Source: a bacterium (GTDB taxonomy: Bacteria; UBA8248). From it: a stretch of 64,000 nucleotides of DNA. Shown here in pieces: positions 1-18,689 of the stretch. Location: NCBI GenBank assembly GCA_965213625.1, contig CBDBZU010000004.1:1632001-1696000 (forward strand). The letters run 5' to 3'. Within the stretch, counting starts at the first letter, position 1. Every line of letters begins with the position of its first letter. Below the pieces are notes generated by a model. The model ran no database searches. It saw only the letters and a list, made by a program, of their open reading frames with translations, and was not told the origin of the DNA. Both the position numbers and the translations under genes were made by a program.

Positions 1-237
1 GCGCGGGTGAACCCCCGGCACAGGAGCTACCGTCTCTCCCAACTCGCTATCGGCGCGGTGCGTCTCGAACGCATCGCGGCGAAATGGGCCGCCGCCCGCC
101 TCCCGAGCGAAAAGGCGCGCTTTAGCTGCTCGGCCCTCGCCACCCCCGATGCGGGCGACACCCGGCCGATCTCGCAAGATTTGCTCAGGAAGCTGCGCGA
201 CGCTGCACCGTATCGCCTGGCGGAGGCGCCTGTATGA
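1..237 (+). CDS. Terminase large subunit, C-terminal end of the ATPase portion (lambda gpA-like; 5'-truncated by window edge)
   Basis: Frame 1 is open from base 1: ARVNPRHRSYRLSQLAIG...KWAAA...RFSCSALATP resembles the gpA-type (G/S)Y-x-L-S-Q-L...W...F-x-N-x-x-L-G-x-P segment. The stop overlaps the next ATG (ATGA 234-237). Lies directly upstream of the nuclease domain and portal. Confidence 0.6.
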   Translation, partial: ARVNPRHRSYRLSQLAIGAVRLERIAAKWAAARLPSEKARFSCSALATPDAGDTRPISQDLLRKLRDAAPYRLAEAPV

Positions 238-881
238 GCGCGGCACCTCGCTTCTGCGGAATCGACACGGGCGATCGCTGCGCGCTTGCCGTGCGCGAAC
301 GGGGGGAGGATCGGCCCGCCCGGTGGATTTATTTTGAAGCGCCTCCTGTTGAACGCCTCATCGAGCGCTGCCGCGCCGTGTTCTCGGCCCTGGGTGTCGA
401 GGCCTTCGTGGTCGACGGCGGACCCCATACCCTGGCCGCGCGCGCGGTGTACGACTTGAACCCCGAGGGCGGCTTCATCTGGCGGCACACCGAGGGCGAG
501 ATGCAGACCAAGGGCGTCTCGTTTCTGGGTGTTGAGCGCCGCCATGTGCGGATGAACCGAGAGGACTTGCTGGATCACCTCGTGGAGGAGTTTCACGAGG
601 GGGCCGGGCGGGTCTTGCTGCCGCAGCCCGGAGATACAGGGGAGGAGGCGCTACTGGCCGAGGTGGAGCGTCACCTGATGAATTTGAGGAAAAAGCCGCG
701 CATCCGCTCCTCCGGGGAGACGGTGCTGGCGTATGAGCGGAACGAGAACCATTTCGGCTTCGCCTGCGCCTATGCGCGGCTGGCCGAATCCCTGGTGCTG
801 AGCGAGGGAATACTGGCCCCACTCGCCGGGGGAACGGTGATGCCGCAGGCTTTTCACAAGCGGATGCTCAAGAGGAGATGA
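234..881 (+). CDS. Terminase large subunit nuclease (RNase H-fold) domain as a separate ORF
   Basis: Motifs FCGIDTG, FVVDGGP, MNREDLLD, ENHFGFACAYA. GGAGG RBS 8 nt upstream. Translationally coupled to the portal gene. Confidence 0.7.
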   Translation: MSAAPRFCGIDTGDRCALAVRERGEDRPARWIYFEAPPVERLIERCRAVFSALGVEAFVVDGGPHTLAARAVYDLNPEGGFIWRHTEGEMQTKGVSFLGVERRHVRMNREDLLDHLVEEFHEGAGRVLLPQPGDTGEEALLAEVERHLMNLRKKPRIRSSGETVLAYERNENHFGFACAYARLAESLVLSEGILAPLAGGTVMPQAFHKRMLKRR

Positions 882-2233
882 AAATGGAGAGTGTAAAAAG
901 GGTGAAGGCAGCCGGGCGGAAATCGGGGGCAGGGAGAAAAGGGGATGCCGCGCAGCGTGCAGGGCGAATGAGCGCAGAGATTGACCCGGATGAGCGAATC
1001 TGGCGGCCTCTGGGGGAGGGGCGCGGCGGAGTTTCGCCCTATGCGCACGCGCGCATGCAGTCGTTGGCGTATGAGTTGTGGCTCACGAACTTGATGGGTC
1101 AGCGCCTCATCGAAATCGTGACGGATCACGTCGTGGGCGAGGGAATAAGCTGGCACGGGGAGGATGAGCGCGCATTAAACGTCGTAAAGGCGTTCTGGAA
1201 CGATCCCGTGAACCAGATGGATATCCGCTTCGAGCGGCTGGTCTCTGAACTCGGCATCTTTGGGGAGCTCCTCCTGCCCGCCGCCGTCTCGCGCTTCGAG
1301 GGGCGCGTCCGGCTGGGCTACGTCAGTCCCCGGCTTATAGAAGAGGTGGTGACGGACCCGGACAACTGCGCTCTGCCCATCGGGGTCGTCCTGCGCGCAC
1401 AGGGGCCGGGCGGTGTGGCTCGTAATGGCAAGCGTATCCGGACGGTGCTGGGTGGCGATCCGCGCGGCTATCTGAGCGCCTCCGCCCAAAAGGAACGCGC
1501 GCGCTTCACGGACGGGGAGGCGTTCCTGTTCCAGATCAACAAGGCGAGCGACGCCGCGCGCGGCGCTTCGGACCTGCTCGCCGCCATCGATTGGATAGAC
1601 ACCTATGAGCGCTTCATCTTCGACACCGTGGAGCGCGCGCGCCTGCAGAACAGCTTCATCTACGACGTCACCCTGAAGGGCGCAGGCCCCGAGAAGATAG
1701 CCGAGTGGCTCGCCGAGAACGGCGTCGCGCCCAAACCCTCGAGCGTGCGCGTGCACAACGAAAAAGAGGAGTGGCAGGCCGTCTCGCCCGACTTGAAAGG
1801 AGGCGAGTCTGGTGCGCAAGGCATCGCAAAGATGATGCGGGGCCTGCTTCTGGGCGGCGTGGGCGTTCCCTCCCATTGGTTCGCCCAGGGAGAGGACGTG
1901 AACCGCGCCTCGGCCGAGTCGATGGATCAGCCCACGCTCAAGAAGATGACGCGCCGCCAGCGCACCGTGCGCCACATATTACAGGCCATGGCCGACAAGC
2001 AGTTGGAAGAAGCCCACCGCGCAGGCGCGCTGCCCGAAGAAGCGCTGCGCTCGGGCGTCTCTCCCGTTCTGCCGGATATCTCCGTCCGCGACACGGAAAA
2101 GATGTCCGAGGCGCTCCTGCGCGTCAGCACGGCGCTGGAAACGGCGACCTCACGCGGCTGGATGAGCGACGATGCCGCCGGCAAGCTCATCACCCACCTC
2201 GCGGGCCAGTTCGGTATGAATCTGGAGGGGTAG
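878..2233 (+). CDS. Phage portal protein
   Basis: 451 aa with NLMGQRLIEIVTDHVVGEGI, ELGIFGELLL, FLFQINKASDAARGASDL, GVPSHWF...NRASAESMDQPTLKKMTRRQ. Follows terminase in canonical order. Confidence 0.85.
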   Translation: MKMESVKRVKAAGRKSGAGRKGDAAQRAGRMSAEIDPDERIWRPLGEGRGGVSPYAHARMQSLAYELWLTNLMGQRLIEIVTDHVVGEGISWHGEDERALNVVKAFWNDPVNQMDIRFERLVSELGIFGELLLPAAVSRFEGRVRLGYVSPRLIEEVVTDPDNCALPIGVVLRAQGPGGVARNGKRIRTVLGGDPRGYLSASAQKERARFTDGEAFLFQINKASDAARGASDLLAAIDWIDTYERFIFDTVERARLQNSFIYDVTLKGAGPEKIAEWLAENGVAPKPSSVRVHNEKEEWQAVSPDLKGGESGAQGIAKMMRGLLLGGVGVPSHWFAQGEDVNRASAESMDQPTLKKMTRRQRTVRHILQAMADKQLEEAHRAGALPEEALRSGVSPVLPDISVRDTEKMSEALLRVSTALETATSRGWMSDDAAGKLITHLAGQFGMNLEG

Positions 2234-2240
2234 GGGTTCT

Positions 2241-3341
2241 CTAGTCCAAGAACTCCCGCGCAGATTTGATCGGCGTTCCGTCTTTTCTGGTGATGGCTCT
2301 GGTGACGCTCAGGTTGTAGCTCGCCGTCAGGACGGCCTGCATGTGGCGGCCGTGGCCGCCTGCTATGACGATGAGGATGTCTTCGGGCCTCGGGACGATG
2401 GGGGCCATGTCCTCATCCTCATCGAGATTCACGAAAGGAGCGAGCGGCGTCATGTCGAAGCCGCCGCGGTCGCGCATCAGGCGAATCGGCTGGCGCGCGT
2501 TCTCGAAGATGAACTGGGAAACATCGGCCTTCGTCCACCCCTGATCCGAGAGCCATGTGGCGGCTTCCGCGGTCAGGACGAGCATCTGCTCGCTCGGCAG
2601 CCCGCTCCGGTAGACGCCGTTCGCGCCGAGGTGGCTCATGGCCGAAGCCGCCGTGCCCAGGTACTTGTGGGCCGTCTTGCTCACCAGGTCGTTCACGTTG
2701 TGGGGCGACTCCGCGCAGAGCATGGTGACGGCGGAAGTATCGGGCGCAAGGCCTCTATCCACATGAAAGGAGGGCCAGGGGCTTCCCTCCTCGTCCTCGC
2801 CGATGGTGTAGGAGTATTTGCCCGGATGCCCGTGGGTGGCCATGTCCGTCACGCCGGGGATGCCGCCGCCGGCGTTCATCATCAGGAGCCTCACCGCGCG
2901 GCCGAGCGTCGCGTTCGCGCGCCGGCCCTGGCCGAACACGTTCTGGCGGCAGTTGACCTCCAGTTCGTTTCGGATAGGCCCGTGGACGATCATCAGGTGC
3001 GCGCCCGGATGGGTGGTCGTCTGGCGGCCGTAGAGGTTGTAGGCGGGTTCCGTCATGGCCTGCATGGCGGCGATGAGTACGGGCAGGTATTCAGGTTTGC
3101 AGCCCGCCATCACGGCGTTGATGGCGATGACTTCCGCCGTGGCGGGTGCGTTCCGTGGCGGAACATGGGCGATGACGTCGCCCGGCGCGTAGTCCGTGAA
3201 GCGCAATGTTTCTGCGACGCGCTCCTCGGTCGGCGGGATGATGGGCAGCCCGTCCGTCCAGCCCTCCTCGTAGAAGTGCTCGTATATCGCGCCTGCGTCT
3301 TCATCGAGTGCTATCTGGCGGGCGGGTTCTGGCGCGTCCAT
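2241..3341 (-). CDS. Conserved protein usually encoded next to or fused with UGSC (seleno)proteins
   Basis: GWTDGLPIIPPTEERV, IAINAVMAGCKPEYLPV, RANATLGRAVRL, GHPGKY motifs. ATG at 3341 lies just after the UGSC stop. Confidence 0.8.
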   Translation of the reverse strand: MDAPEPARQIALDEDAGAIYEHFYEEGWTDGLPIIPPTEERVAETLRFTDYAPGDVIAHVPPRNAPATAEVIAINAVMAGCKPEYLPVLIAAMQAMTEPAYNLYGRQTTTHPGAHLMIVHGPIRNELEVNCRQNVFGQGRRANATLGRAVRLLMMNAGGGIPGVTDMATHGHPGKYSYTIGEDEEGSPWPSFHVDRGLAPDTSAVTMLCAESPHNVNDLVSKTAHKYLGTAASAMSHLGANGVYRSGLPSEQMLVLTAEAATWLSDQGWTKADVSQFIFENARQPIRLMRDRGGFDMTPLAPFVNLDEDEDMAPIVPRPEDILIVIAGGHGRHMQAVLTASYNLSVTRAITRKDGTPIKSAREFLD

Positions 3342-3348
3342 GCCGATA

Positions 3349-3903
3349 TCAAGCGCTCGCCTGCGTGAGGGCCGCCGCGAGATGCGCGCTTGCTCTCGCC
3401 GACATCTCATCCACCTCCTCGCGCTTTCTGCCCGCAATGGGGTGGGGAAGTGCGACGAGGGGAAGATCGCTCATCTTGTGCAGCTTGGTGAGTTGCTTCG
3501 CGTATGTCTCAAACGCGTCGGTGACGATGGTGACCGTGGCCAGCCCTCTTTTCTCTAAAGCGACGCTGTCGTGGATACTCCACGATGTGCACGAGCCTCA
3601 GTCGCCGAGTGCGGAAACAACGGCGTCGCACTCTCCTTCCACCTGCTCCATGAGGGCGGGCGATGCGCCGCTCACGGATTCCTTCCGGTAGCGCACAACG
3701 CGCACGCCCGGGAACTGTTTTTCAAGCGCGGCGCCCATGACGCTTAAAATCTTATCGGTGAAATCCTTCGTGTTGTTGATGAGGCCGACGCTCATGCCGT
3801 TCAGGCTTTCTGGCCGCGCCGCCATGACGGCGCTCGCGCCCGGAGCCTCCGCCACGGGTTCGTAGACGAGAATTTTTTCCTTTTCCTTCGTCATTTCACT
3901 CAT
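3349..3903 (-). CDS. UGSC-family selenoprotein (Sec at TGA 3598-3600)
   Basis: Reads ...VVSALGD-TGA-GSCTSWSIHDSVALEKRGLATVTIVTDAF...LPHPI...QASA-stop(3349-3351). GGAGG RBS before ATG 3903. Hairpin downstream of the TGA. Confidence 0.9.
3569..3585 (-). promoter_or_regulatory. Putative bacterial SECIS element
   Basis: TCGTGGA-GTA-TCCACGA, a perfect 7-bp stem with the loop G 20 nt after the TGA. Confidence 0.75.
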
Positions 3904-12815: not shown

Positions 12816-13157
12816 ATGTCCGACAGGCGAACCCACACGATAGTCCTCGCTCCTCCCGCGACCAGAGTCGCCGCGGGAGGCAGCACGGCGTTCGAAGTGA
12901 GCCGCTTCACCGAGGCGCTCTTGTTCATCGACGTAACGGCAGTTTCTGGCGATTCGCCCAAGCTCGATTTCGAGGTGCGAACCGGGCCGGAGGATGATGA
13001 AGTCGCTTTCGAGCATACCAAATCTGCGCAAATCACCTCGGCGGGTAAAACCCTCGTCAAGCTCACGAACATTGGCCCCTGGATCAGGCTCGCGTGGTCC
13101 GTCGGCGGGGAGGAGGCTTCGTTCACGTTCGAGGCCAAGCTCGCGCTGAAAACATGA
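12816..13157 (+). CDS. Putative capsid decoration/cement protein (small beta-rich)
   Basis: 113 aa, all-beta pattern (DVTAVSGDSPKLDFEV...NIGPWIRLAWSVGG..FTF). Directly after the capsid gene with a TAAGGAG RBS. Confidence 0.55.
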   Translation: MSDRRTHTIVLAPPATRVAAGGSTAFEVSRFTEALLFIDVTAVSGDSPKLDFEVRTGPEDDEVAFEHTKSAQITSAGKTLVKLTNIGPWIRLAWSVGGEEASFTFEAKLALKT

Positions 13158-13200
13158 GACCACCTGCATCTGGTGAGCGAGACGAGAGGAGAAAACAGGA

Positions 13201-13911
13201 ATGGCAAGCAGGCAGACGATCATCAAGGAGGTGAAGGTGTTGTTGAAGACGGGCGCGCTGCCCCGGGAGTTCGGGGCTGAGGAGGCGGACTTCGCCGATT
13301 TGGTGAACGCGGCGCTCACACGCTACAGCAAGGACAGGCCGCTCGTTTCGTTCGCCGATTACGCAGGCGATAGCGAGTCGTTCGATTTTCCCCTGCCCGA
13401 GGACTGGGATGACTCCCTCTCCTTCATCCGTGAGGTGGAATATCCACAGGGGGAGAGAAAACCCTCCTACCTGCGGAGGAGCGCCTGGATCATCTATGCC
13501 AAAGGAACCCCGGCGGCGAGGTTCAGGCTCATGTACTTCGCTCCTCAAATGGGCCACACGCTTCGCCTGTTCTACACGATCAAACACACGGCAGATGACG
13601 AACACACCAGTGTTCCCGAAAACGATTTGACCGCCGTGGCCTGGCTGGCCGCCGCGGAGGGCTGTCACCTTCTGGCCCGCCGCTTCGCCCAGTCCTCGAA
13701 CCCGACCCTCGCAGCGGATTCGGTGGACTACCAGAGCAAGTCTTCGGAATACACGCGCCTGGGCCGGGAGCTCGAGCGCAAATACCAGAACCATCTCGGC
13801 CGCAAGGAAGGCGAAGTGGCGGGCGCTGCAGGCGCGTCTCTCGATTGGGACATTCTTCTTTCATTGGCGCGCGGTGAGTACTTCACGCACGGCGCCTCCG
13901 GGGATCGCTAG
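13201..13911 (+). CDS. Putative head-tail adaptor/connector protein
   Basis: Position in the cluster. Helical N-terminus, beta middle, C-terminal DSVDYQSKSSEYTRLGRELERKY typical of adaptors. Confidence 0.6.
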   Translation: MASRQTIIKEVKVLLKTGALPREFGAEEADFADLVNAALTRYSKDRPLVSFADYAGDSESFDFPLPEDWDDSLSFIREVEYPQGERKPSYLRRSAWIIYAKGTPAARFRLMYFAPQMGHTLRLFYTIKHTADDEHTSVPENDLTAVAWLAAAEGCHLLARRFAQSSNPTLAADSVDYQSKSSEYTRLGRELERKYQNHLGRKEGEVAGAAGASLDWDILLSLARGEYFTHGASGDR

Positions 13912-14433
13912 GTGGGGAGGAGGGGCGGAGTGTTCCGTCGATATGTGGCGCTTGGAGAATTGCCGGAGGTGCCGGCAATCGCATGGGAAGAGGTTTTTCT
14001 CCTCGCGCACGAGGCGATGCGCGAGATCATCGGAATGCTCAGGCGCGAGGTAATGGCGCGAACGCCCATCGGCGCGAGCGGAAACCTCAGGGGCAATATC
14101 TACACCGGAATAAAAGGAATAAGCCCTCAAGTGTTGCGCGGCGTGGTCGCCTCGCGCACCCCATACGCCAGGTACGTGGAATTCGGGCGCCGGGCGGGCG
14201 GCAGAATGCCGCCTTGGAGGGAGGGTACGTCCCTGTATCGCTGGGTGGCCCACAAACTGGATCCGCCCGATGGGCAAATCGAGAGCGTGTCCTTCCTCGT
14301 TGCCCGAGCGATCGCACGGCGCGGGATACCGGCAAGCCGTATGTTCGCGCGCGCCTTCGAGCAAAATCAAAGCCGAATCGATCGGCGTATTCGTGAACTG
14401 CTCGATGAGATTGCGAGGTTAATAGGTGGCTAA
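13912..14433 (+). CDS. HK97 gp10-like neck/tail-completion protein
   Basis: TPIGASGNLRGNI, TPYARYVEFG, GIPASRMFARAFEQ. Confidence 0.8.
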   Translation: MGRRGGVFRRYVALGELPEVPAIAWEEVFLLAHEAMREIIGMLRREVMARTPIGASGNLRGNIYTGIKGISPQVLRGVVASRTPYARYVEFGRRAGGRMPPWREGTSLYRWVAHKLDPPDGQIESVSFLVARAIARRGIPASRMFARAFEQNQSRIDRRIRELLDEIARLIGG

Positions 14434-14959
14434 ATCACGATACAGAGAAATTGGCGACACCATTTTGGCGGAAATATCGAGCGTACCGGAGGCAGGGCGG
14501 GTGCACGCCTATCAGCGCTGGTCGGCCGATTTGGGGAAATACCTGGACCATTTCCGTTGGGAGGCGGGCGGCGGCCTCGCCCAGATCAGGGGTTGGGTGC
14601 TGACGCGCGAGAGAGCAGGGGAGGAGGCTGCATCGGTCGGCTCTAGCGCGTCCGGCGGCTTCACGCCCTCAGGCCTCAGCAGGCGAACCCACACGTTCTT
14701 GCTGTTCGGCATCATGAGCGCCGAGGACGCGGTGGGCAGCGAGGTGGCCTTTCAGGATCTGATCGAGGAGATTTGCGACCGCTTCAGGGACGACAGGGCG
14801 CTACGCCTCCTCGATGATTCAGGCGCCCCGCGCGTCCGCTCCCTGGAGCGTCTTCAGCCTCCGCAGGTGGATCTGATTGAACTGAGAACATTTGGAAACG
14901 TGCTTTGCCACTACGTCGAAATCAGGCTTCGGGCAATAGAGCGGATTCGGCGGGATTGA
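14426..14959 (+). CDS. Putative tail terminator protein
   Basis: Position between the gp10-like and tube genes, size, and the pattern FQDLIEEICDRFR...LCHYVEIRL. Confidence 0.6.
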   Translation: MAKSRYREIGDTILAEISSVPEAGRVHAYQRWSADLGKYLDHFRWEAGGGLAQIRGWVLTRERAGEEAASVGSSASGGFTPSGLSRRTHTFLLFGIMSAEDAVGSEVAFQDLIEEICDRFRDDRALRLLDDSGAPRVRSLERLQPPQVDLIELRTFGNVLCHYVEIRLRAIERIRRD

Positions 14960-15032: not shown

Positions 15033-16172
15033 ATGGGCGATACGATATTGATGGATCGGCAAACTATCGGCGCGACGGAAGAGAAGGAACTTGTGGCGGA
15101 TTCCGCCGACGCCTCCACCCTGGTGGACGCCGCGCTCGCAGAGGATGATGACTTCTGGAACGGCTCGGTGCTGCGCACGATTCGGGGGATGGGTGTTGGC
15201 CAAAAAAGAAAGGTGAGCGATTACGACGCGGCCTTGGACACGCTCACGGTGGACACCGCCTGGGACGCCATGCCGGCGGCGGGCACGGCCTACCTACTGG
15301 ATAGGCCCGCTGTTTCTTCGGAACTGTTCCGGGCGGGCAACTTCACCCATGAGGTCAGCGTTGAGCAGCTGGAACGCGCGGTGAAGGATGCGAGCCTCTC
15401 GCCTTTTCCCTCGATTCCAGGAAAACGCTCCGCGCAGATTTCCTTTTCCACCGAGTTGCGCGGTTCGGGAGTTCCCGGAGTTGCGCCCGATTACGGACTG
15501 TTGTTCAAGGCGTGCGCGATGAGCGAGGCCATCGTGGAGGGCGCTTCCGTCACCTATGCGCCCGTGTCCGATAAATCGGACTATACGAGAGTCTGCCTGA
15601 CGACGTTCATCGACGGACTGCGGGTGATGTATCTGGGCTGCATGGGGAGTTTTTCCATCAACTGTCCCCTGGACGGCGTTCCCACGGTGGATTGGGAGTT
15701 CGAGGCGGCTGATTTCGAAGTGAGCGATGCGCCGCTCCCGGGCGGCGCGTCCTACGACGAGCAGACGCCCGAATCCATCCTCATGAGCGGCTTTTCGTTC
15801 GGCGGATTCCATTTAGACGCGGCGAACATCCGCTTTGCCATGAACAACGAAGTGGTGCTGCGTCAGAGCGCCAACGCATCGGGCGGGCACGTGAACGCGA
15901 TGGTGACGGGCCGTGCGCCCTCCGGCTCCTTCGACCCAGAAGCAGTGCTCCAGGCCACAGACGACGTGTTCGCCGATTGGGAGAGCGGCGCACAGCTCCC
16001 CCTGCGCGTACAGATCGGTCACAGGGCCGGGAACATCTGCACCATCACCGCGCCCAAGTGCCAGTATTCGGATATGGGATTTTCCGACCGCGACGGCCTG
16101 CTGACTTATGATGCGCCCTTCCGCCTGGCCCGCGACGCGGGTGATGACGAGATTTCCATCGTTTTCACCTAG
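15033..16172 (+). CDS. Non-contractile tail tube protein with inserted N-terminal accessory domain
   Basis: ISFSTELRGSG...PDYGLLFKAC, VTYAPVS, GCMGSFSI, VTGRAPSGSF, GDDEISIVFT C-terminus. AGGAGG RBS. Confidence 0.8.
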   Translation: MGDTILMDRQTIGATEEKELVADSADASTLVDAALAEDDDFWNGSVLRTIRGMGVGQKRKVSDYDAALDTLTVDTAWDAMPAAGTAYLLDRPAVSSELFRAGNFTHEVSVEQLERAVKDASLSPFPSIPGKRSAQISFSTELRGSGVPGVAPDYGLLFKACAMSEAIVEGASVTYAPVSDKSDYTRVCLTTFIDGLRVMYLGCMGSFSINCPLDGVPTVDWEFEAADFEVSDAPLPGGASYDEQTPESILMSGFSFGGFHLDAANIRFAMNNEVVLRQSANASGGHVNAMVTGRAPSGSFDPEAVLQATDDVFADWESGAQLPLRVQIGHRAGNICTITAPKCQYSDMGFSDRDGLLTYDAPFRLARDAGDDEISIVFT

Positions 16173-16244
16173 CCGTTATTCGACAGGCGGCTTCTTCTTC
16201 ATTTTGGCCAAGTATTGGTTCAGGGAAAACGAACGGGAGGAATC

Positions 16245-16637
16245 GTGGAATTATCAGAATACAGAAACCATGGCCGCAAGCCCATCACGCTGCCTTCGGG
16301 GCTCAAGGGCTTCGTGCGCGCGCCGAATCTCCTGGACATGGCGGCGTATCCAAAGTTATTAGCCGGCGCTTCAAACGGTGCTGCGGGCGAGGAGGAGCAA
16401 TACGCGCTTACCGGGGAGTGGGTGCACTGCATCCTGAGGCGCTGCTTTGTTCCCGAGCGCGGCTCGATGACGGAAAAAGAACCGGGGCGTTGTATGCCCG
16501 ATGAACTCAGCATCCACGAACTCGCCCCGGCGGATGCGGATGCGATTTTCACAGCCGTTACGGCCCTGCAGAACGAGACGGCGGCTCCTGTCCCTGAGGA
16601 GGGCGCGCCGGGCGGCGATACGTTTCCGGCGGCGTAG
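16245..16637 (+). CDS. Tail assembly chaperone (gpG-like)
   Basis: GGAGG plus GTG start, ITLPSGLKGFVRAPNLLDM. Follows the tail tube gene. Confidence 0.7.
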   Translation: MELSEYRNHGRKPITLPSGLKGFVRAPNLLDMAAYPKLLAGASNGAAGEEEQYALTGEWVHCILRRCFVPERGSMTEKEPGRCMPDELSIHELAPADADAIFTAVTALQNETAAPVPEEGAPGGDTFPAA

Positions 16638-16824
16638 GAAAGAGCTTCTCGGGGTCATTCACTTTCAGGCGAAGACCTATGGCCTCCCCCCGCACCTGTT
16701 GGCTCGATGCTCCTGGGAGGAGTTCCGCTTCAACCAGGAGGTGCTCGAAGCCGGTCTGGCGCTGGAGCGGATGAGTCGGCGGGAGCCGGGGAAAAACACG
16801 AACCTCAGACGATTCAAGAGCTAA
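16627..16824 (+). CDS. Tail chaperone extension (gpT-like), probably expressed by programmed frameshift
   Basis: The +1 frame overlapping the gpG stop reads RRRRKELLGVIHFQAKTYGLPPHLL...EFRFNQEVLEAG. No own RBS or start. TTT-C site at 16623-16626. Confidence 0.55.
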   Translation, partial: RRRRKELLGVIHFQAKTYGLPPHLLARCSWEEFRFNQEVLEAGLALERMSRREPGKNTNLRRFKS

Positions 16825-16866
16825 AGAACCGGCTCTCCCGATACGGGGAGGGCCGGTTCTTATTTG
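16824..16866 (+). terminator. Rho-independent terminator ending the head-tail operon
   Basis: 16-bp stem AAGAACCGGCTCTCCC / GGGAGGGCCGGTTCTT followed by ATTT. Confidence 0.8.
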
Positions 16867-16911
16867 GTGCTTGATGTTTTTCCGGTTAAGAGAGCTATTT
16901 TATTCTGGGAA

Positions 16912-17244
16912 TTATTTGTCCCACTGAAAATCAGGATTCGGCGGTGAGAACATGTCGATGTACTCCGCTTCTTCGAGAACTTCGCCTCCGTGCGGGGTTC
17001 CCGCCGGAAACACCATGACGTCACCTGCCTGAACGACCTGGTAATCCTCGTCTCCCGAGTGGAACTTCAGCTTTCCCCGGATCATGTGCGTTATCTGGTC
17101 GAATTCGTGCGTGTGCGTCTTGATGGGACTTCCGGTCTTTGCCGTGATCCGGCACGCCATCACGTTGTCCGTTTTGACGATTCTACCCCGGATGATGTCG
17201 TTCAGTTGTCTTTCCTCGACGTCGTTCCAATGAAGTATAGCCAT
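16912..17244 (-). CDS. Cupin-domain protein
   Basis: HTHEFDQ...GDVMVFPAGTPHG cupin motifs. Confidence 0.85.
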   Translation of the reverse strand: MAILHWNDVEERQLNDIIRGRIVKTDNVMACRITAKTGSPIKTHTHEFDQITHMIRGKLKFHSGDEDYQVVQAGDVMVFPAGTPHGGEVLEEAEYIDMFSPPNPDFQWDK

Positions 17245-17274
17245 GAGCGCATCCTCATATTGAGAGTTGTGGAT

Positions 17275-18036
17275 TCATGGTCGAAACAAATCTTCTTCTT
17301 TCGTGCGGTAGAGTGTCTGCGCGGGGCGGTGTCCCGCATGGTATTCGAGGCCGCGAATCAAGACGGCGGGAACCCCCTGCTTGTCCTGTCCCATCACCAT
17401 GCTCGCCGCCGCCGCGATTTCATCCGCATGCGCGAGTATGGTGATCTCGAGGGCGCGGCCTGTTCTGTCTTTCTCTCCTCTCAAATCCACCAGAGGCTCC
17501 AGACCGGCGCATCCTATCGCAACGCCGACGACGCCTCGCCGAAAGGCACGCCCCTGGGTGTCGGCGATGAGGACGGGAACGAAGGCGTCCGTCGCGTGTT
17601 TGATTTCTTCATGGAGTTTCCGGGCGGAGATGTCGGCGTCGCGGGGCAGCAACAGCACCTCATCTTCATCCCCTCCGACGTTTGAGCGATCGATGCCTGC
17701 ATGGGCGCATACCGCGCCTGTTCGGTGCTCCACGATGAGCGCACGCTCCGAGGCGACGACTATCTCGTTCGATTCCCTGAGTACCGCCTCCACCAACCTG
17801 GGGTCACGCCCGTCGCGGTTTGCGATATTGAGCGCTTCACGCGATGGCTCGACGCTTTTCAGGTCCAAAAGCCTGCCTTCGGCCTTGCTGACGATCTTCT
17901 GCGCGAGGACCAAGACGTCCCGATCCCGTATTGTCACCCCGCTTGCCTCAATTGCTTCCAGAATCAGGGGCGTGAGTGCGTCGCCCTCTTTGAATTCCGG
18001 CAAACCGATGACGGGGATGATTTCGACGTTTTTCAT
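17275..18036 (-). CDS. cofE: Coenzyme F420-0:L-glutamate ligase
   Basis: AQKIVSKAEGR, AGIDRSNV, DTQGRAFRRG, ADEIAAAA. ATGA overlap with cofC. Confidence 0.92.
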   Translation of the reverse strand: MKNVEIIPVIGLPEFKEGDALTPLILEAIEASGVTIRDRDVLVLAQKIVSKAEGRLLDLKSVEPSREALNIANRDGRDPRLVEAVLRESNEIVVASERALIVEHRTGAVCAHAGIDRSNVGGDEDEVLLLPRDADISARKLHEEIKHATDAFVPVLIADTQGRAFRRGVVGVAIGCAGLEPLVDLRGEKDRTGRALEITILAHADEIAAAASMVMGQDKQGVPAVLIRGLEYHAGHRPAQTLYRTKEEDLFRP

Positions 18037-18689
18037 CTCATGGGAGCAGAAGCGAGCCACTCCGGTGCTTCTTTCTCGTGGGAGAGCAGGAATTCGAGGT
18101 CTTCGGGAGAATCGATGTCGTGCGCAAAGCCGAACGATTTAAAGGATAGCGGGTCGCTGTGACCATCCCTCGCGGCATCGCTGTGTTTTTCGAAACTCCG
18201 CTCCCCGAACAGAAAGGGAACCGCGTCAATCGGCTGTGTGAAAAGCGCGGTCGTGCCGCCATCCTTGGATTTGGCGATGCGTATGTCGCGCCCGGAGTTC
18301 TCCGGTCGTGCGCGCTCTTCGATAAAAGCGTTCACCTCTTCGCTCGTTAAAAACGGCAAATCTCCGTGGACGATCAACAAGGAGAGGGTGTTTCTCTCTC
18401 TTGCCCAGGTGCGGCCGATTTCGAGGTCATGGTTGAGACCGCCTGATTTCTGGAACAAGCCGACCGCTCCGTATTCTCCCGCCAGAGTCAAAACTTCCGC
18501 GGAATCGCTCACCACCGCTATTTCATCGATGCGCTCCGCATTCCCGACCGCTTTGAGGACGCGCTCGATCATCCAGCGGCCCAGGAGGTTTCTCGTGTTC
18601 TCGTCCAGGGTCTGCGCGAGCCTCGAATTACCGGTTCTGAAATCACGAACGGGTATCAAGGCGACGCAATGGCTTGAAAGACTCATCAT
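18033..18689 (-). CDS. cofC: 2-phospho-L-lactate/PEP guanylyltransferase
   Basis: LIPVR...SRL, GGLN, HGDLPFL, DGGTTAL, FGERSFEKH, DIDSPEDL. Confidence 0.88.
   Translation of the reverse strand: MMSLSSHCVALIPVRDFRTGNSRLAQTLDENTRNLLGRWMIERVLKAVGNAERIDEIAVVSDSAEVLTLAGEYGAVGLFQKSGGLNHDLEIGRTWARERNTLSLLIVHGDLPFLTSEEVNAFIEERARPENSGRDIRIAKSKDGGTTALFTQPIDAVPFLFGERSFEKHSDAARDGHSDPLSFKSFGFAHDIDSPEDLEFLLSHEKEAPEWLASAPMR

Follow-up and report, generated by a model that had tools for sequence, protein, structure and literature searches.

Large terminases are normally regarded as one chain, with the translocating ATPase coupled to the nuclease by a flexible linker. At the left end of a 64,000-nucleotide stretch of a bacterial genome (lineage UBA8248, assembly GCA_965213625.1, contig CBDBZU010000004.1, positions 1,632,001 to 1,696,000; hereafter the window), a large terminase is encoded by two separate, overlapping open reading frames (ORFs), one for each part. 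Is this a gene broken by a frameshift, or an enzyme that has come to be made of two proteins? A preliminary description of the window had favoured an evolved two-gene enzyme over a random frameshift. We arrive at the same answer, because the split is conserved and its junctions vary, both halves are under purifying selection, split sequences occupy a branch of their own in a tree, and fused kin appear only at 36-45% identity. An evolved two-gene arrangement of the large terminase is in our opinion very probable. That the two proteins are also produced, bind each other and package DNA as a working enzyme we infer with lower, though still good, confidence.

Two overlapping genes encode the large terminase

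The first ORF runs in frame 1 from base 1 of the window, which cuts off its 5' end, to a TGA at 235-237. The window corresponds to positions 1632001-1696000 of contig C4 in our numbering of the genome (G000:C4:1632001-1696000), and upstream DNA was added for the full ATPase ORF. This ORF (G000:C4:1631179-1632237) codes for at most 352 amino acids (aa); the form in the protein collection (P0001) has 340 aa. As the preliminary description had stated, the ATPase stop at 237 and the nuclease start at 234 share an ATGA, and a GGAGG precedes it (Table 1). A GGAGG or near variant is found at most of the compared junctions of the family. The nuclease gene may lead into the portal gene through a second overlap of this kind, which the preliminary description does not mention; an alternative portal ATG at 884 has better spacing to a GGAG at 874-877. 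Scanning of the three-gene cluster for promoters and terminators gave no promoter-like site and seven terminator-like ones, all within coding sequence, where 2.6 were expected, a result that carries little information.

The junction at 225-240 was also compared with contigs assembled from sequencing runs. Three runs from three samples of one study have Logan contigs (depth 52-155) that cover window 1-2300 with no differing letter and no gap, although they are possibly the source of the assembly itself and hence not independent of it. Short low-depth contigs of another run (X6, 'viral metagenome') lie over window 651-2236 and are mostly 90-95% identical to the nuclease-portal region. Judging from this identity, they derive from a relative, either as DNA packaged in particles or as cellular contamination.

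Both halves of the terminase are recognizable

The ATPase ORF matches Pfam GpA_ATPase (PF05876) at E 1.8e-18 and with 67.5 bits, the cut-off being 25.6, and this is the only match of the family in the whole genome. It further aligns with positions 25-345 of the 576 positions of phrog_675, 'terminase large subunit' (E 9.3e-48). Positions 360-550 of the same profile are matched by the nuclease ORF (E 3.5e-11). Since both ORFs cover consecutive stretches of phrog_675, nothing has been lost at the break, and both align end to end with fused homologues. The assignment of the ORFs to a large terminase thus holds in Pfam and PHROGs for the ATPase, and in PHROGs, not Pfam, for the nuclease. The ATPase tail that lies within the window matches no Pfam family on its own, and a sequence search of PDB with the nuclease profile returned a chance match only (E 1.2).

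Conserved residues were examined in both proteins. In 26 ATPase sequences, including two fused phage forms, the columns K65, G66, Q68, G70, D168, E169 and four cysteines are invariant; we take these to be the P-loop, Walker B and zinc-ribbon positions of this family. In the nuclease, D11 (window 264-266) and N172-H173 (747-752) are invariant and D61 (414-416) nearly so, presumably as active-site positions. Invariant columns of both halves are common to the fused phage homologues.

The nuclease was modelled with a mean predicted local distance difference test score (pLDDT) of 86.7 and a predicted template modelling score (pTM) of 0.83. The best fold matches in PDB are terminase nuclease domains, namely those of G20c (5m1f; E 7e-5, template modelling score 0.51), herpes simplex virus pUL15 (4iox) and SPP1 (2wc9). 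Fifteen fold matches have E of 0.001 or lower, and RuvC resolvases rank after the terminase nucleases. A nuclease domain following the ATPase, as in a large terminase, is therefore present by phrog_675 and by fold, while Pfam finds no family; wherever the junction of a family copy can be read, a stop and a separate start come between ATPase and nuclease. Public records label the nuclease half just 'hypothetical protein', so that such elements are easily scored as carrying a truncated terminase.

The split is conserved across genus and family

We wondered if relatives of this bacterium share the split. Public records label genomes of the family, which has no cultured members, as Nitrospinota or Tectomicrobia. 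Of the 22 other genomes in the genus, 20 yielded the nuclease, as did 28 of 36 genomes in the family. At all 20 genus loci compared (the window's genome and 19 species) the frames of ATPase, nuclease and portal stand in the same relation to one another, and the first two genes overlap in an NTGA, the start codon being ATG in 16 and GTG in four. Genome G018 has a like ATGA junction, yet carries a frameshift inside the nuclease; with it, all 21 gene-bearing genomes of the genus possess the NTGA overlap. Everywhere the terminase halves occur together and beside the portal gene, whose product is 70-95% identical across the family.

Other genera display further junctions. The overlap is ATGA in G027 and TTGA in G028. 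In genus g9 the two ORFs are separated by 243 nt (L026) and 323 nt (L025), with stops in all three frames, and a further species has a spacer of ~65 nt. In a collection of species representatives, whose loci largely overlap the family genomes already counted, 24 of 26 junctions are readable: 14 are ATGA, seven GTGA, one TTGA and two are spacers (~65 and 243 nt). The split therefore extends through the genus and into other genera, with three kinds of junction. No fused terminase copy was seen among the family loci. One apparent fused copy, L067, was rejected and left out of the counts, its junction being a run of N; L069 is a truncated short contig lacking the ATPase, with an unreadable junction.

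The spacers of genus g9 (L025 5375-5471, genome G030; L026 4014-4256, genome G034) contain G/C-rich inverted repeats with a long hairpin. This hairpin resembles a small repeat element that has entered the junction by insertion.

Fused relatives are distant

To place the split among known terminases, we compared 67 ATPase homologues. Those at least 50% identical to the window's ATPase are 194-408 aa long, whereas 14 homologues of 36-45% identity measure 525-596 aa. Fused sequences read straight across the break site. On three IMG/VR contigs (L034-L036) the ATPase part is 40-43% and the nuclease part 31-34% identical, both lying in one frame. An exhaustive search with the nuclease among 1.84 billion representatives gave 44 matches. 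The ten best, of 61-270 aa, are short proteins standing alone or fragments; among the remaining 34, 23 have at least 500 aa, with the aligned region in the C-terminal part.

In a quick maximum-likelihood tree, the 49 split rows part from the 14 fused ones at a single branch with a Shimodaira-Hasegawa-like approximate likelihood-ratio test value (SH-aLRT) of 99, the groups being set by length and three rows shorter than 300 aa being left out. This fits a single origin of the split, in or before the ancestor of the family. Scanning of IMG/VR with the nuclease alignment, which is based on short patterns and is no proof of absence, gave three loci and no close relative of the split clade. Two of these loci are the fused large terminases (TerLs) already seen and the third is 23% identical. 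Relatives of the portal in IMG/VR are limited to two loci, 32-33% identical and situated beside another type of terminase, and are uninformative on the split.

Five proteins from elsewhere in the protein library (P0124, P0130, P0143, P0150 and P0136; 197-278 aa) share ~30-33% identity with the nuclease. Either fragments from the ends of contigs or independent terminase nucleases that stand alone could account for them.

The ATPase tail is predicted to dock on the nuclease

The modelled complex of ATPase and nuclease scores 0.84 (0.84, 0.85 and 0.84 in separate runs) against 0.00 for the best of three controls; this mark is reached by 116 of 157 solved complexes and by 2 of 215 mismatched pairs, but the alignments used include fused homologues, so that the score may recall single-chain contacts and speaks for likeness, not for binding. 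At least 86% of contacts agree between runs, and partner pLDDT is at least 80. The confident interface consists of ATPase residues 296-340, i.e. the last 45 residues, lying on nuclease helices 109-121 and 135-149 and on neighbouring strands. Invariant residues F303, C305, L308, P311 and G314 fall within this C-terminal arm.

It had been proposed that the break falls at the domain linker. Alignment with the fused homologues agrees, and the model adds a refinement: the linker arm seems to lie before the cut, so that the ATPase would retain it as a tether that docks on the nuclease. The two-chain prediction suggested beforehand thus scored high, although it may reflect the fused homologues.

Both genes are under purifying selection

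Ratios of nonsynonymous to synonymous substitutions (dN/dS) were estimated pairwise for the 20 genus sequences. With 190 pairs for each terminase half, the ATPase has a median of 0.215 and the nuclease one of 0.204; the portal has 0.132 from 171 pairs, L019 being left out because its portal match lies in three frames. All these values are approximate, as the genome has a strong bias in G+C content at third codon positions. By this estimate both terminase halves are under purifying selection.

The split terminase belongs to a scattered phage-derived gene set

We examined which other phage genes accompany the terminase (Table 1). Their order is as follows: a module of lysis genes and small terminase, ~15 kb of host-type genes, the ATPase-nuclease-portal cluster, ~8 kb of host-type genes, and capsid, neck and tube genes. 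From small terminase to tube the set spans ~33 kb, with host genes interspersed. The upstream module (G000:C4:1613384-1616268; 15384-18268 of locus L042) consists of genes for a DUF1508 protein, a lysozyme (PF00959), a GTA_holin_3TM protein (PF11351, E 6e-12) and a small terminase matching phrog_426 (Phage_Mu_Gp27), together with two ORFs without family. This module and the capsid site were first found via ORFs of viral contigs, then by family scans.

Models of HK97-type and lambda-E-type capsids have no match in the genome; the capsid gene was then found by Phage_capsid_4. It also matches phrog_29592 (E 3.3e-130) and phrog_4523, 'major head and protease protein' (E 9.5e-51). Among the small ORFs that follow it, the one of 113 aa has only a weak tail match (E 0.0066) and those of 236 and 177 aa belong to no family. 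PHROGs searches with 44 further ORFs of the window and its upstream region revealed no additional structural genes. Among the ORFs scanned over ~98 kb, mostly with PHROGs only at E<=1e-4, no integrase, replication or lysogeny gene was recognised, and to this extent the set shows no sign of self-propagation.

Table 1. Features of the phage-derived gene set. Positions are those of the window unless a genome coordinate is given.
Feature	Position	Strand	Basis or remark
Lysozyme, GTA_holin_3TM protein, small terminase	G000:C4:1613602-1616268		upstream of the window
Large-terminase ATPase gene, final 78 codons and TGA	1..237	+	Pfam GpA_ATPase, phrog_675
ATPase C-terminal arm, residues 296-340 of the 340-aa form, predicted nuclease dock	100..234	+	complex model
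GGAGG, Shine-Dalgarno-like, 7 bases 5' of the nuclease ATG	222..226	+	sequence
ATGA overlap, nuclease start (234-236) over ATPase stop (235-237)	234..237	+	nuclease in -1 frame
Separate gene for the large-terminase nuclease, 215 aa, RNase H-like fold	234..881	+	phrog_675, fold model
Second ATGA overlap, nuclease stop and possible portal start	878..881	+	sequence
Portal protein gene, 451 aa	878..2233	+	phrog_10963, E 3.1e-47
Fused protease/scaffold/major capsid gene, 743 aa	10551..12782	+	Pfam Phage_capsid_4, E 1.6e-44
Four small ORFs (113, 236, 173, 177 aa) after the capsid gene	12816..14959	+	PHROGs/Pfam
HK97-gp10-like neck or tail-completion protein, 173 aa	13912-14433	+	HK97-gp10_like, E 1.2e-05; phrog_5, E 3.1e-13
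Tail tube gene, 379 aa	15033..16172	+	Phage_tube_2, E 5.3e-12; phrog_290, E 1.5e-19

Capsid and small terminase genes occur in 33 of 41 family genomes each, the tube gene in 28 of 41. Every module is absent from G009, from G010 and from all four sampled genomes of genus g5. In complete genomes the order of modules is the same and their spacing similar. Going by this distribution, family members either retain the modules jointly or have lost them jointly.

Such a gene set is most likely a scattered, vertically inherited element resembling gene transfer agents (GTAs), which would package DNA of the cell. That the whole element is a functional GTA, from which particles are released, we infer with somewhat less than even confidence. 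The preliminary description had connected the split terminase with sequence-independent packaging of host DNA. As a conjecture, such packaging gains plausibility from the scattered, vertically inherited gene set with its GTA-type holin, a support that comes from this setting and not from the split itself.

In G013 (C2:994499-997423) the tail tube match falls into two pieces ~1.8 kb apart. The tube gene of this genome seems to be interrupted by an insertion.

Alternative explanations

Could the split terminase be a frameshift pseudogene, dead within what is left of a decaying prophage? Its cluster is small and lies amid host genes, frameshifted copies exist in G029 and G023, and G018 has a frameshift within its nuclease. 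Nevertheless, the same break is found in every copy examined, in several genera, and both ORFs are intact in nearly all of them. With dN/dS of ~0.2 in both halves, invariant motif residues, a junction start codon retained through ATG, GTG and TTG variants, and modules retained or lost jointly, we regard a pseudogene as very improbable. The chance of an indel at 225-240, from assembly or sequencing, is negligible. Nothing specific was found in its favour apart from a metagenome-type assembly with a contamination estimate of 5.16%; the contigs of three runs, though possibly its source, are gap-free over this region, and the same frame relation in more than 25 other species already refutes it.

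Recoding or splicing might restore a single polypeptide, be it by -1 frameshifting, bypassing, an intron or an intein. The nuclease gene overlaps the end of the ATPase gene and is read in the -1 frame relative to it, and spliced or candidate-recoded terminase genes are in print (PMC12880540, PMC10732093). Yet at 17 of the 20 genus loci no X XXY YYZ heptamer is present in the open -1 zone, the sole heptamer of the other three is situated ~400 nt upstream, and in some species just 34-55 nt are open upstream in the nuclease frame. In other genera the spacers of 65-323 nt are unrelated in sequence and have stops in all frames, which rules out a shared frameshift. The 4-nt overlap is too small to hold an intron. 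An Rfam search of window 1-2400 and the L025 spacer detected no intron family, only sub-threshold matches to microRNA-like hairpins in the L025 spacer. We give restoration of one chain no better prospects than the pseudogene. Less far-fetched than either, but still unlikely, is that both genes are kept for some other role in the cell or in defence, the particle genes not serving DNA transfer. Such co-option would suit the lack of detected distal tail genes, as well as the faster divergence of the nuclease from its phage homologues (33% identity, compared with 43% for the ATPase). It sits badly with terminase halves that always adjoin the portal, which needs a terminase partner, with their co-occurrence with small terminase, capsid, tube, holin and lysozyme genes, and with invariant motif columns in both ATPase and nuclease.

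An evolved two-gene enzyme acting in a GTA-like particle remains our preferred explanation, and the following points weigh against it, along with the limits given above for the complex score and dN/dS. The GGAGG also codes for conserved residues of the ATPase tail, so its conservation is not assignable to ribosome binding alone; it is still kept in genus g9, where the nuclease starts hundreds of bases away, and is thus unclean evidence of coupling. The nuclease ORF matches no Pfam family at E<=1, and its third catalytic position is N-H, not acidic, so that nuclease activity is assumed. Decaying copies of the element are present in G029 (C1:3121536-3152862) and G023 (C132; L028, L029), with frameshifts in ATPase, nuclease and portal, and the tail tube gene of G029 has an internal TAG stop; selection is therefore not universal. 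Finally, family scans found no baseplate or fibre gene, models PF10145 and PF20155 found no tape measure gene in the genome, and the tail region holds four ORFs with weak or no family assignment.

Comparison with known systems

The closest relatives of the split enzyme are single-chain TerLs of the lambda gpA type from phage contigs (P0052-P0066; L034-L036). They belong to the same ATPase family and share the order of ATPase, linker arm and nuclease, the invariant columns and a four-cysteine zinc ribbon, whose role we presume. ORFs adjoining the TerL in L034-L036 match G000:C4:1615606-1616256, i.e. a small-terminase-like gene lies upstream in both. The difference is that two polypeptides are encoded here, the nearest fused forms sharing only 36-45% identity with the ATPase and 31-34% with the nuclease. 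Moreover, the window's portal has no tblastn match in L034-L036, which indicates that its type differs from that of those phages.

A comparative survey treats the C-terminal nuclease domain as a universal feature of large terminases of tailed phages (PMC7824862). Departures from a continuous, active chain are nonetheless described. Jug phages and Twort-like Staphylococcus phages have terL annotated as several pieces (PMC12880540, PMC13729910), and in Jug phages RNA splicing restores one coding region, as metatranscriptome reads show (PMC12880540). Unlike these intron- or intein-containing genes, the window's pieces overlap by 4 nt, have unrelated spacers elsewhere and match no intron family. 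The large terminase gene of Streptomyces phage Hau3 likewise contains a change of frame, in which non-coding inserts of 7-10 nt follow rare UUA codons and a full-length protein is proposed (PMC10732093). The genes described here differ by a stop-start overlap with a kept start codon, and by long spacers in some genera. Similarly, phi29 gp16 is a packaging ATPase with a vestigial nuclease domain (PMC7672431), but this is one chain that has lost nuclease function, whereas the window's nuclease retains its invariant residues in a separate chain. We found no naturally two-protein large terminase in print, only intron-split and candidate-recoded ones, with most subscription journals and supplements outside the search.

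Among GTAs, RcGTA has a multilocus genome (PMC5026251), and the roles of terminases in GTAs are covered in PMC11841831. As in GTAs of the RcGTA type, the recognised genes for head, tail, terminase and lysis are dispersed between host genes, pass vertically and stand under purifying selection, a likeness that here concerns the genes alone, and a holin of the GTA-type family PF11351 is present. On the contrary, the bacterial lineage is another one, the terminase is split and of the gpA type, and even the head module is broken by host genes. A search for literature linking GTAs to Nitrospinota or Tectomicrobia found none, most subscription journals being outside its reach.

Proposed organization of the packaging motor

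How might such an enzyme work? A gpA-type terminase gene would have been divided directly behind its linker arm, and the division would have become fixed in the ancestor of this uncultured family. The large terminase would since be made as an ATPase of ~340 aa, the translocase, and an RNase H-like nuclease of 215 aa, the cutter. Ribosomes that end the ATPase at its TGA may restart at the overlapping ATG, GTG or TTG, while in some genera the nuclease would be initiated independently after the spacer. The C-terminal arm of the ATPase would dock non-covalently on the nuclease, and the heteromer would work with small terminase and portal like an ordinary packaging motor.

Taken further, the family may keep an undescribed GTA with genes spread over tens of kb, whose motor is a natural heteromer of ATPase and nuclease held by the docking arm. 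We put this forward tentatively, as somewhat less probable than its opposite; the idea that uncoupling of cutter and motor is an adaptation of domesticated particles forms part of it. If it is true, the cell could, for instance, set the dose of nuclease, and thereby how often packaging starts and headful cuts occur on its own chromosome.

A long-lived natural split under selection offers a direct test of whether headful cutting and assembly of the motor on the portal need covalent linkage. It also supplies ready-made stand-alone domains that have evolved to act in trans. The element would further be a candidate GTA in a lineage without cultured members or a described GTA, and bears on gene exchange in these environmental bacteria.

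Neighbouring genes

Two neighbours of the cluster recur in relatives. The gene yajQ adjoins the terminase in many species. In L004, L005, L007, L012, L015, L018 and L030 only an N-terminal yajQ fragment is present (residues ~1-60, 50-72% identical), just upstream of the ATPase, which points either to an old rearrangement at this border or to a remnant that arose by duplication. On the other side, a 398-aa ORF without Pfam or PHROG family directly follows the portal gene (window 2241-3437, minus strand) and lies beside the portal in several species.

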